A DNA stretch of 64,000 nt from Halocafeteria seosinensis (GCA_001687465.1 LVLI01000173.1:62001-126000); one strand, 5' to 3'; positions 9,848 through 12,614 are shown, counted from the stretch's first letter. Translations and numbers: made by a program. Notes: generated by a model from the letters alone, not told the origin.

Positions 9848-12614
9848 ATGTCAGGTAAGCAGGCAGCAGAATGATGTCAGCCAAAGGGGAAGAAATAGCA
9901 GATATGCATGGACATCGTATGGTTTGTTACATCCCTTTTATGCAGGAAGCGACGACACAGCTGGGGTGAAAAGACAAAGTATCATAGGTAAGAGATAACT
10001 GCAGTCTTAGGTCTATAACCCATGGAAGACATCATTCACCGTGCTACTTCCCGTGTGACATTTTCGTTGGTTACATAAGCATGCACTAATTAATACTATT
10101 GTAATGCCGTCTTCCCGTGCAGACGAGGAAGTGGCTCTTTCTGGGCAGGGAGATGTGACATTGTCGAGCCCACCACCAAGTAGTATGTTGAAGCAATTAC
10201 ACTAGCGAGTCTCTACTTTATGCTATTATAATGCTGTCTTCTTGTGCAGATGGAGACATAGCTCGCTCTGGGCAGGAGAGCGCAACGCCATTGAGCTCGG
10301 CATGGAATCGTATGTTCAATCAGCTCCCCTCTTCGGATGTTCATTATTTATACGATTGTAAGCGGTTTACCATGCAGTTGAAGCCATGGCTCGGAAAATA
10401 CAAGAGTTAGAAGAGAGGGAAAAAGAAAGAGAAAGAGAGGTTGCCGAATTGAGAGCGAGAGCTAAAGAAAGAGAAGAGAGAGCTAAAGAAAGAGAGGAGA
10501 GAGCTAAAGAAAGAGAGGTTGCCGAATTGAGAGCAACGCTGCGCTCTGCCGAGCAATTGAGGTCTGGTAAGAAGCAGAAGAAGTACAATAACAGCACTTG
10601 TTATTATGAGCAGTCGACAGTAGAGTGGCTGAAAATGCTACTGCAAAGCAATATTGCCCACCGCAAGATGGCGAAAGATAACAAAAAAAAGTACGAGTTC
10701 AGGGGCGTCATACCTAACAGCCCAGAAAGTGATATCTTAGGACTAATTATTCACGAACTATTTATTGACAAAACTAAAGCCTACCGACGGAGTATCGAAC
10801 GGAAGTTACTGGGGTACCAGCTAGGAGTACTATTGGGAGTGTTTCCGAGAAGGATCGGTAAAACGACTTGGCTTGCGTTTTTGCAGAGTACTCTGGGGCC
10901 AGTGTTTGATGAAAGAAGGTCAGAGTCTTTTTACAATGCGCTGTCAGGACTAAGAGAAGGAGCTTTCTTTCTAGAAGTTCCCATTCGGCCGGTAGTGTTT
11001 TTGGATCTGGTGTCTGTACATGATGTACGTGCTGAGATGGAAAGACTATTTGGGAAATACAGGATCTACAAACTACCAAATTCCAATTCTGACTTCTCCA
11101 CCTATCTTAAAGATAGTATGGAGCTCCTCCAAGAACTGTTCCAGAAAGCAAGAGAAGGGCTATCGCCCGAAGACCGTGAAGATGTCAACTCAGAACTGCT
11201 TGTGTTGATAGACGAGTTTGATGCTCCGTATCGAGCGGCAGAAGCACGGGCTGGAGAAGACAAAGAGCTAAGAAAGCACTATAAAGGGGTTCAAGATTCT
11301 CTGGGAATCGTAATGGCGTCGTTAAAGAGCTTGCTTCACCAACAGAACCAAATAATTTGGGGTGTGTGTATTACCTCGTTGATGCCACTTGGAAAGACTG
11401 GTCTTTCGGAGCTGCAGCTGCATTGTTCTAGTGCGATCACTTTTAAGCAACAACACCACGAGTTGTTTGGTATCTCCGAGAATGAGCTAATGTATACTTT
11501 GGAGCATCATCCAAGCGACACGATGTCATTGAAGGATGTTCTTGAATGGGCAAAATGGGTTGGCGTTGTTAGCGGTACAGCGGATTTGTCCGAGAAATTG
11601 AAGGAGTGGCTTGCTCATCAAATAAATGGGTTTTGTATGGCTTTAGATCGTGATGATGCAAGCTTAAACGCTTTATACAGTCCACTTGATGTCATTGAAA
11701 TTCTTTTGCGAGTGCAAAGTAGGGACTGGCTTAAGGAAGATAAACAGCCCAAAATTCCGGAGTTGCAATGGATTAATTGCTCCAAAGCCACCTACGGAAG
11801 TATGTTGAGTCAGTATATAAACGAGGCAGACTTACGAAACGCCCTGACTGGGGGTGTAGTAGATTACGAATATTTTCAGCAGCGTCAAGTGCTCTCGGAT
11901 TTTTTCACCAACAATCGTAAGGCACATTGTGCAATCCTTTTCTTTTTGGGGTTGCTTCAAGTTACCAAGGTTTACAGAAAGAGAAATGGAGTCCCCGAAA
12001 GAGTTGTTCTAATGCCGCCAGATTATTCACGTAGTTTGCCAGACATTGTCCACATGCTAAATTACGCTTTCCCCACCAGAAGACAATTGCCGGACACTGT
12101 CTTAGACAAGTTTTCGAATGATCATGCAGTGTTGAAAGAAGAGGTCTTGCACTGTGTTCAGGTAGGGTGCCAGCGAGTCAGAACGGATTATGAAGACTAC
12201 GAGGGCGAGGGCGGGGTCAGAGAAATCCCCGTGCAGGATGCTATCTACCTTTGCATGACTGAACGACTTTGTCATCAAAGGAGGCTAAAAGTCTACGTAG
12301 AGAGCTACATAAAGGACGGCTCTAAAAGAATTGATATACGGTGTGTTTTGAATGAGGGTAGGACAGATGAATTCACTATTATCATAGAGGTGAAGATGCA
12401 CTGGTCCAAAACCTTCACCAAGACCAAAGCTTATGAGGCGCTTACACAAGCAGCTGACTACCGACGTCGGCTGAAAAAGTCCCACCAAGAGTGTAGTCTT
12501 CTAGCTGTCGTAGTGGCATGGAAACTCAGAAAGGTGCGAAGCTGGTACGGAGAGTACTCCAATGGTGTTCCAGCGAGCACCGCTCTACCAAATGCAACTA
12601 AAGAAGTCACTTGA
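9848..12614 (+). CDS. Coiled-coil + AAA-ATPase-like P-loop NTPase + PD-(D/E)xK nuclease; predicted exons 9848-9854, 9946-9987, 10123-10182, 10250-10309, 10378-12614
   Basis: Walker A FPRRIGKTT, Walker B VLIDEFDAP, C-terminal E..RID..IIIEVK..EALTQAADY. Four GT-AG phase-1 introns ending tgcag join an ATG at 9848 in frame to the 10386 ORF. Confidence 0.85.
10410..10536 (+). repeat. Coding purine-rich repeat (21-nt RAKEREE units) forming a coiled coil
   Basis: gagagctaaagaaagaga occurs three times; gagaggttgccgaattgagagc occurs twice. Confidence 0.85.

Follow-up and report, generated by a model that had tools for sequence, protein, structure and literature searches.

What is a gene of bacterial type, with an ATPase and a nuclease in one chain, doing among large surface-protein genes of a eukaryote? 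The question is raised by a 64,000-nucleotide (nt) stretch of the Halocafeteria seosinensis genome (GCA_001687465.1 LVLI01000173.1:62001-126000, hereafter the window), in which a stop-free open reading frame (ORF) at 10386-12614 on the plus strand, with its ATG at 10386 and its stop at 12612-12614, encodes a protein of 742 amino acids (aa; P0001). Our best explanation, to which about an even chance is given as a whole, is that it is an intact stramenopile gene, a member of a set of six or more diverged paralogs, and that its product is a predicted ATP-gated DNA nuclease of the DUF1703/Crinkler-RHS (CR) lineage, similar to the class that joins nucleoside triphosphatase (NTPase) and restriction endonuclease (REase) domains as CR-NTPase8+REase7, and likely acts against invaders. 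The identity as a CR/DUF1703-type ATPase-nuclease and its domestication are held with high confidence; an anti-invader role, directed against invading or parasitic DNA inside the cell, is about evenly balanced.

The motifs quoted in a first-pass annotation of the window were all located in the ORF. Walker A (PRRIGKT) occupies residues 154-160 (nt 10845-10865) and Walker B (IDEFDAP) residues 275-281 (nt 11208-11228), and the nuclease signature E..RID..EVK..ALTQ..Y is represented by E613, D650 (RID), E668-x-K670 (EVK) and Q688-xxx-Y692, with the catalytic residues intact. The coiled coil was also repeat-built as described, since residues 2-60 are made of 21-nt and 78-nt direct repeats (D1, D5). 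The features of the protein are as follows:

10389-10565, plus strand: coiled-coil helix, repeat-built, residues 2-60, modelled as one long helix
10569-10580, plus strand: basic KKQK patch resembling a nuclear localization signal, weak, by pattern only
10611-11795, plus strand: AAA+ NTPase core and helical lid, about residues 76-470, from PF09820 (E 2e-4), the model and VIA
11796-12065, plus strand: predicted winged-helix domain, about residues 471-560, with helices 503-520 and hairpin 525-543 in the model; the name is inferred
12066-12611, plus strand: PD-(D/E)XK nuclease domain with E613, E639, D650, E668, K670, Q688, Y692 and the clade-specific Q617

The proposed architecture, AAA-ATPase_like followed by PD-(D/E)xK, was supported from several sides. 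Pfam matches were obtained for PF09820 (21.6 bits, E 2e-4) and PF08011 (16.2 bits, E 0.01), both below the gathering scores of 26.1 and 25.5, respectively; the PF09820 gathering score was passed by the clade relatives P0003 (32.8), P0022 (35.1) and P0033 (27.3). Residues 70-742 were placed by Atlas at 0.97 with PF09820+PF08011 clusters, one of which is 51% eukaryotic among members having a record, in a family that is mostly bacterial. A profile of six close relatives aligned by hhalign to a canonical DUF1703 protein gave a probability of 98.8 over 475 columns. No match was found for the 742-aa protein in NCBIfam, and a sequence search of the PDB with it gave nothing (E 0.2).

The AlphaFold2 model built from 84 sequences had a mean predicted local distance difference test score (pLDDT) of 89.5. 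For the whole model, the top VIA-align matches were the archaeal ATPases PAB2304/SSO1545 (2qen Z 14.6, 2fna Z 14.2; root-mean-square deviation (rmsd) 4.0, 293 aligned), and the winged-helix range falls within the region aligned to them; next came plant NLR resistosomes (Z 13.2), MalT (11.6), Avs5 (11.0), BrxC (10.7), Avs3 (10.4) and Cdc6/ORC (10.3). Foldseek returned generic AAA+ matches only for the whole model, and weak full-length matches only in the viral library. The C-terminal 183 residues modelled alone reached a pLDDT of 91.9, and VIA matched this nuclease domain to CinB first (7esz, Z 8.8, rmsd 4.3, 148 aligned), followed by BpuSI (7.6) and HsdR and Hje (6.8), with further REase-fold matches to SfiI, SwaI, Hjc and EcoRV; the inactive-looking human Rep15 likewise scored 8.2. 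Foldseek on the domain listed CinB, Hjc and SwaI, none of which passed E 0.001. The REase fold was assigned because many REase rows agree and because the D, E, K and Q are conserved, being kept in 41, 40, 41 and 39 of 43 aligned rows. Thus the REase fold on which the first-pass annotation had staked its proposal is predicted for the C-terminus.

The host and the family were then placed by homology. The PTEN ORF of the window (948-3008) shares 99.5% identity over 660 aa with a protein in EukProt set GECG01, which has transcript-type accessions and is probably the transcriptome of the halophilic bicosoecid H. seosinensis, and the next named matches (43-49%) come mostly from oomycetes, and also from MAST-4 and brown algae; these matches indicate that the host is a stramenopile. 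The GC content of 46.8% published for H. seosinensis (bioRxiv 10.64898/2026.06.25.734631) agrees with that of the window. GECG01 also holds five paralogs of the nuclease gene at 23-37% identity (P0004 with isoform P0100, P0005, P0008, P0011 and P0014), so that, counted from this transcriptome set only, there are at least six copies including this gene. The gene is therefore not a conserved single-copy housekeeping ortholog, which the earlier proposal had named as evidence to the contrary. Searching the full set of 1.84 billion representatives with HMMER yielded 98 hits, 28 of them below 1e-10 and none above about 51% identity at full length. In a tree of 77 of the 84 aligned rows (309 columns; the 7 rows left out were short; SH-aLRT support only, midpoint root), the 742-aa protein falls into a clade of 30 rows supported at SH-aLRT 99, and 43 rows of canonical type group separately (98). 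Within a subclade of 16 rows (96), the protein and its five paralogs are interleaved among environmental sequences, and monophyly of the 742-aa protein and these paralogs, a group named after the tree had been seen, was rejected (p-AU 0.0002). The duplications therefore predate the split from the organisms behind the interleaved sequences.

The N-terminal headers of the members are unrelated: acidic with a coiled coil and a basic patch in the 742-aa protein, hydrophobic in P0004 and P0015, basic and of low complexity in P0011, and leader-like in P0020, P0022 and P0032. A SAM-like header suspected by eye in P0027 was not found by Pfam. At the other end, P0019, P0020, P0025, P0028 and P0038 lose homology within the nuclease domain and continue as low-complexity tails, several of which begin at the same column before Val; such tails are what intron read-through would give, which suggests that these sequences are eukaryotic. 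Pattern scans, which depend on exact peptide patterns and may therefore overlook relatives, found 6 loci of 311 candidates in GTDB genomes (21-29% identity) and 44 loci in metagenome contigs (49 of 235 candidates, 21-28% identity), but nothing in viral contigs, where 0 of 190 and 0 of 123 candidates matched.

The clade carries its own version of the catalytic site. Four residues past the helix-1 Glu there is a Gln (Q617 here) in 17 of the 18 clade rows covering the site; canonical rows have His there in 20 of the 24 matched by the pattern, with 10 of 34 canonical rows unmatched. This His after the helix-1 Glu is described in PMC11342252 as a mark common to CR-REase7 and CifB. The Glu on the first core beta-strand (E639) is also kept in 17 of 18 clade rows. 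In the ATPase, Walker A reads FPRRIGKT, in which the first Arg is replaced by Phe and the two Arg proposed to be functional are retained; Walker B has DEFD, and a Ser stands at the position of the DUF1703 sensor-1 Gly (FLTG type).

It was proposed earlier that the gene had been laterally acquired or is mobile, with its AT-rich surroundings as one sign. Upstream of the ORF, however, a chain of four introns is predicted, which makes an old, intron-bearing host gene likely. The predicted exons and introns, together with the 3' spacer, are:

9848-9854, plus strand: exon 1, start codon, 7 nt, predicted; connected in frame, across four introns of the predicted gene model, to the ORF
9855-9945, plus strand: intron 1, 91 nt, GTAAG..TGCAG, phase 1, predicted
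9946-9987, plus strand: exon 2, 42 nt, symmetric, predicted
9988-10122, plus strand: intron 2, 135 nt, phase 1, predicted
10123-10182, plus strand: exon 3, 60 nt, symmetric, Ser/Pro-rich, predicted
10183-10249, plus strand: intron 3, 67 nt, GTATG..TGCAG, phase 1, predicted
10250-10309, plus strand: exon 4, 60 nt, symmetric, predicted
10310-10377, plus strand: intron 4, 68 nt, phase 1, predicted
10378-12614, plus strand: last long exon, containing the 742-aa ORF
12615-13192, no strand: AT-rich spacer, GC 0.355, separating the stop codons of this gene and of a convergent 4022-aa ORF

When the four GTAWG..TGCAG segments are removed, the ATG at 9848 joins the ORF into 801 aa with no internal stop, every junction being of phase 1. 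In 1000 dinucleotide shuffles of the upstream 1546 nt, 991 contained no such intron and 9 contained one, against four observed. The acceptor and exon unit is duplicated between exons 3 and 4 (repeat D3, 77% over 64 nt). The start at 10378 given by the first-pass annotation holds as an exon edge, being the first base after a predicted splice acceptor; the ATG of the ORF is eight nucleotides further on. A second cluster of similar candidate introns was seen at 56172-57088 on the plus strand, where four such introns (65-74 nt) and two symmetric exons of 72 nt precede a Thr/Ser-rich ORF; those four alone yield no complete gene model.

Third-position base composition agrees with that of host genes. 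The total GC of the ORF (0.448) is the lowest of 13 ORFs measured (the others 0.476-0.505), and this arises at second codon positions only (0.36); third-position GC is 0.459, within the range of the 12 other ORFs (0.423-0.476). The segment 12620-13190 was rightly described as AT-rich, since at GC 0.352 it is the AT-richest 570 nt anywhere in the window, but it is a spacer between convergent genes, and its composition was not supported as a sign of foreign origin; two further convergent spacers in the window have GC 0.41.

For structural variation, four runs from two samples cover the region, and among the joints listed in them none skips the nuclease gene. A contig of run X1 joins 6403 to 9581 and so omits 3177 nt including a GLUG-like surface-protein gene (6896-8839); the segment 6404-9580 is a presence/absence variant beside the nuclease gene. 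Contig depth in X1 is about 110 over the ORF and about 57 over 6317-9313, values not used as copy number. Another X1 joint, from 10429 to 10508, drops 78 nt of the coiled coil in frame. An intron at 10430-10507 was considered for it and rejected, the skipped segment being a purine-rich repeat in which 27 letters fit both sides. Runs X2-X4 (one sample, kind not on record) cover 10867-12787 and 13125 onward and lack 8338-10675 and 12788-13124, where X1 continues; we do not take these gaps as a sign of transcription. Contigs of the second sample continue from the ORF into the 3' spacer. The inverted repeat I4 (9559-9577 / 12633-12651) was rejected as a terminal repeat, since a 10-nt exact match arose in 125 of 300 shuffles, and no target-site duplication was seen around it. 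Among the best-supported 40 of 106 allelic differences, 12 fall in the ORF, all sparing the catalytic residues and 6 of them synonymous. An allele at 12613 alters the stop codon, which would lengthen the protein by two residues; the listed variants leave the frame intact elsewhere. Because third-position GC is neighbour-like, four introns are predicted, no terminal repeats above chance and no empty site were seen at this locus, and no close prokaryotic or viral relative was found, the gene is very unlikely to be a recent insert, and the earlier suggestion of recent acquisition or present mobility was not supported.

How such a protein might work can be outlined from related systems. In CR proteins, according to PMC5289972 and PMC11064341, the REase acts as toxin under the control of the NTPase, and such proteins occur in free-living eukaryotes; a switch-and-cut mechanism is proposed here because of this model. 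The NTPase would keep the nuclease off until nucleotide exchange, probably when the winged helix contacts DNA or the coiled coil contacts a partner. The protein would then rearrange or oligomerise as in ORC/CDC6- and STAND-type switches, which would license metal-dependent cutting by E613/D650/E668/K670. Swappable headers may direct the paralogs to different places, with the basic patch here and hydrophobic helices in another paralog; a nuclear site of action is likely for this copy. The action would be against invading DNA, or as a suicide effector, and the origin would be an ancient transfer from prokaryotes followed by duplication. PF09820 is listed among the domains of the Radar, PARIS and Old-tin defence systems in PMC10952713, and the H. 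seosinensis genome is reported to carry many endogenous virophages and Polinton-like viruses (bioRxiv 10.64898/2026.07.28.741278), a load which is a plausible pressure and no evidence about this gene. The 742-aa protein is a putative conflict effector. A bolder version is offered tentatively, as rather unlikely in all its details: a protist innate-immune, NLR-like nuclease family with a bacterial DUF1703 core, Gln in place of His at a remodelled catalytic site, and headers reshuffled by way of symmetric phase-1 exons and an expanding coiled coil. Such headers might direct the paralogs to the nucleus, to membranes and to mitochondria, where they would destroy the DNA of giant viruses, virophages or Polinton-like elements, or else the infected cell itself.

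The main rival to an anti-invader role is a selfish element, that is, a Medea-like toxin or a single gene able to mobilise itself, which is maintained because it kills cells or progeny that lack a copy rather than through any benefit to the host. The nearest described architecture, CR-NTPase8+CR-REase7, is that of Tribolium Medea1 and a proposed source of the Wolbachia CifB nucleases (PMC11342252); a DUF1703 homolog is part of Medea, and Medea1 carries one (PMC6387759; PMC3144190; PMC7465683). The top fold match, CinB, and the multi-copy, patchy family also fit. Yet the Pfam scan, which took in 12 of the 23 window ORFs (ORF 36240-42434 left out), found no antidote-like partner gene or transposase among those 12; the inverted repeat in the flanks is no better than shuffled sequence gives, none of the joints listed in the four runs leaves the gene out, and paralogs only 23-37% identical speak against a recent burst; the predicted introns also count against a selfish element. 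We regard the selfish element as a minority possibility. Somewhat less probable is a co-opted housekeeping enzyme of DNA repair, recombination or organelle DNA upkeep. It would account for the ORC/CDC6- and Hjc-like folds and for P0020, P0022 and P0032, whose basic, acid-free N-termini resemble mitochondrial leaders; the copy studied here has an acidic start and no leader, the paralogs bear unrelated headers, and 98 hits in so large a collection, none close, describe a patchy, fast-diverging family with no conserved ortholog. Export as a toxin against prey or competitors, in the manner of oomycete Crinkler (CRN) effectors, was judged very unlikely: NTPase plus helix-turn-helix (HTH) plus REase is given in PMC5289972 as the commonest CRN C-terminus, and the P0004 header has hydrophobic helices, but the 742-aa protein has no signal peptide or membrane segment (top 19-residue hydropathy 1.66), no LxLFLAK or HVLV motif and no Crinkler Pfam match at E 0.1.

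The remaining two alternatives take their cue from the locus itself. Coupling of an intracellular effector to the flanking surface receptors, as a sensor-effector cluster, would fit the position of the gene between GLUG-like and multi-pass surface proteins, where presence/absence variation occurs. However, no receptor-domain fusion occurs among the 98 hits (longest 1103 aa), Pfam on the 84 aligned members gave the ATPase, the nuclease and one DUF only, the large receptor lies on the opposite strand, and the upstream neighbour may be missing while the nuclease gene stays. Nothing ties the nuclease gene to the flanking surface proteins, and little weight is left for this explanation. Least probable of all, and already largely refuted, is the view that the gene came recently from bacteria, was inserted into the receptor cluster as a mobile element or is a contaminant: the low total GC, the AT-rich 3' flank and the mostly bacterial family would suit it, but host-like third-position GC, the intron chain, second-sample contigs spanning the ORF into the spacer, best prokaryotic matches of only 21-29% identity in GTDB and metagenomes, and none in viral contigs contradict it.

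Several points weigh against a domesticated anti-invader nuclease. The literature search gave no tested function for any DUF1703 protein, and the role of the domain is called unclear in PMC6387759. PADLOC returned 0 families for P0001 at E 0.01, with weak matches, nuclease only, for the paralog P0004. With His replaced by Gln at helix 1, catalysis may differ or be weaker, and a VIA Z near 8 for the nuclease domain is middling when taken alone. The share of synonymous changes (6 of 12) is only weakly above chance (p 0.09 against neutrality). The four-intron gene model is a prediction from sequence alone, and its consensus was read off the same introns, two of which share the duplicated unit. 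The product of this copy was not found in the protein collection, in which the PTEN neighbour and five paralogs are present. An organism was named for 5 of 22 relatives looked up, so that the eukaryotic range of the clade is inferred.

As for the surroundings, the label of a eukaryotic receptor cluster proved roughly right. Three giant window ORFs have 7-8 hydrophobic segments, mostly C-terminal, and one ORF has a single late segment; six others, with GLUG-like beta-helix and Ser/Thr stalks, have hydrophobic segments at the N-terminus only. Nine ORFs (3651-8839, 27911-33061, 36240-54851 and 62062-63924) share a Gly-rich GLUG-like beta-helix, most with a Ser/Thr stalk next and two with seven C-terminal hydrophobic segments; one reached 0.94 in Atlas to PF07581 clusters. 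They form an expanded surface-protein family poorly covered by Pfam. The convergent neighbour at 13193-25261 (minus strand) is a single 4022-aa ORF with Cys-rich ephrin-receptor-like repeats, cadherin, TIG and seven C-terminal hydrophobic segments. At 58357-59295 (minus strand) lies an intronless alpha/beta hydrolase (PF00561, E 2e-22). The only N of the window, at 37317, is within ORF 36240-42434.

Eukaryotic NTPase+REase effectors of prokaryotic origin have been described, so the gene is already known in kind. DUF1703-type ATPase-nucleases are widespread and linked to Medea and to the origin of the Wolbachia cytoplasmic incompatibility toxins, and a domesticated, multi-copy, intact protist version provides a soluble enzyme of one chain, modelled with confidence, on which to ask what an ATP-gated CR-type nuclease cuts, and when. 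Should the role be antiviral, the protein would join the small number of immune effectors known from protists. The literature search found no paper that deals with this clade in a protist; Zhang et al. 2016, whose CR class is described in PMC5289972 and PMC11342252, may already list stramenopile members.

DUF1703 (PF09820 AAA-ATPase_like + PF08011 PDDEXK_9), as defined by Knizewski et al. 2007 (PMC1913061), shares with the 742-aa protein the four-part layout, an Arg-rich Walker A, a DE[YF]D Walker B and a full-length profile match; its AAA+ module, helical middle and C-terminal REase fold with nuclease motifs I-IV are present here. It differs in that our protein stays under both Pfam cut-offs in a separate clade, has Gln for the helix-1 His, Ser for the sensor-1 Gly and a core about 100 aa longer, and bears a eukaryotic N-terminal header and predicted introns. 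Judged by sequence, strict membership fails for DUF1703 on the Pfam cut-offs and the sensor-1 Gly, and for CR-REase7 on the His signature. The kinship with Crinkler/RHS-type effectors drawn in the first-pass annotation was nevertheless upheld (PMC11342252). Like CR-NTPase8+CR-REase7 (Medea1 class), the protein has the order header, NTPase, HTH and REase, with variable headers, prokaryotic ancestry and a Glu on the first core strand; unlike that class, it is without the signature His, the ubiquitin-like (Ubl)/LxLFLAK header and a known killing phenotype, and no transposon was seen around the gene. The Ubl header with LxLFLAK and HVLVxxP of oomycete CRN proteins is not present either. Wolbachia CinB/CidB resemble it in the nuclease domain, for which CinB is the top structural match, whereas in CinB the nucleases stand in tandem, there is no ATPase, CinA serves as a partner, and His takes the place of our Gln. 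Finally, archaeal PAB2304/SSO1545 and the STAND/NLR proteins (ZAR1-type, Avs3, Avs5, MalT) have the same NTPase, helical and winged-helix core (Z 10-14.6) and an N-terminal coiled coil, but at 9-12% identity only the fold is shared; here the effector is C-terminal, a nuclease standing where STAND/NLR proteins carry a leucine-rich repeat (LRR), TPR or WD40 sensor, with no repeat Pfam.

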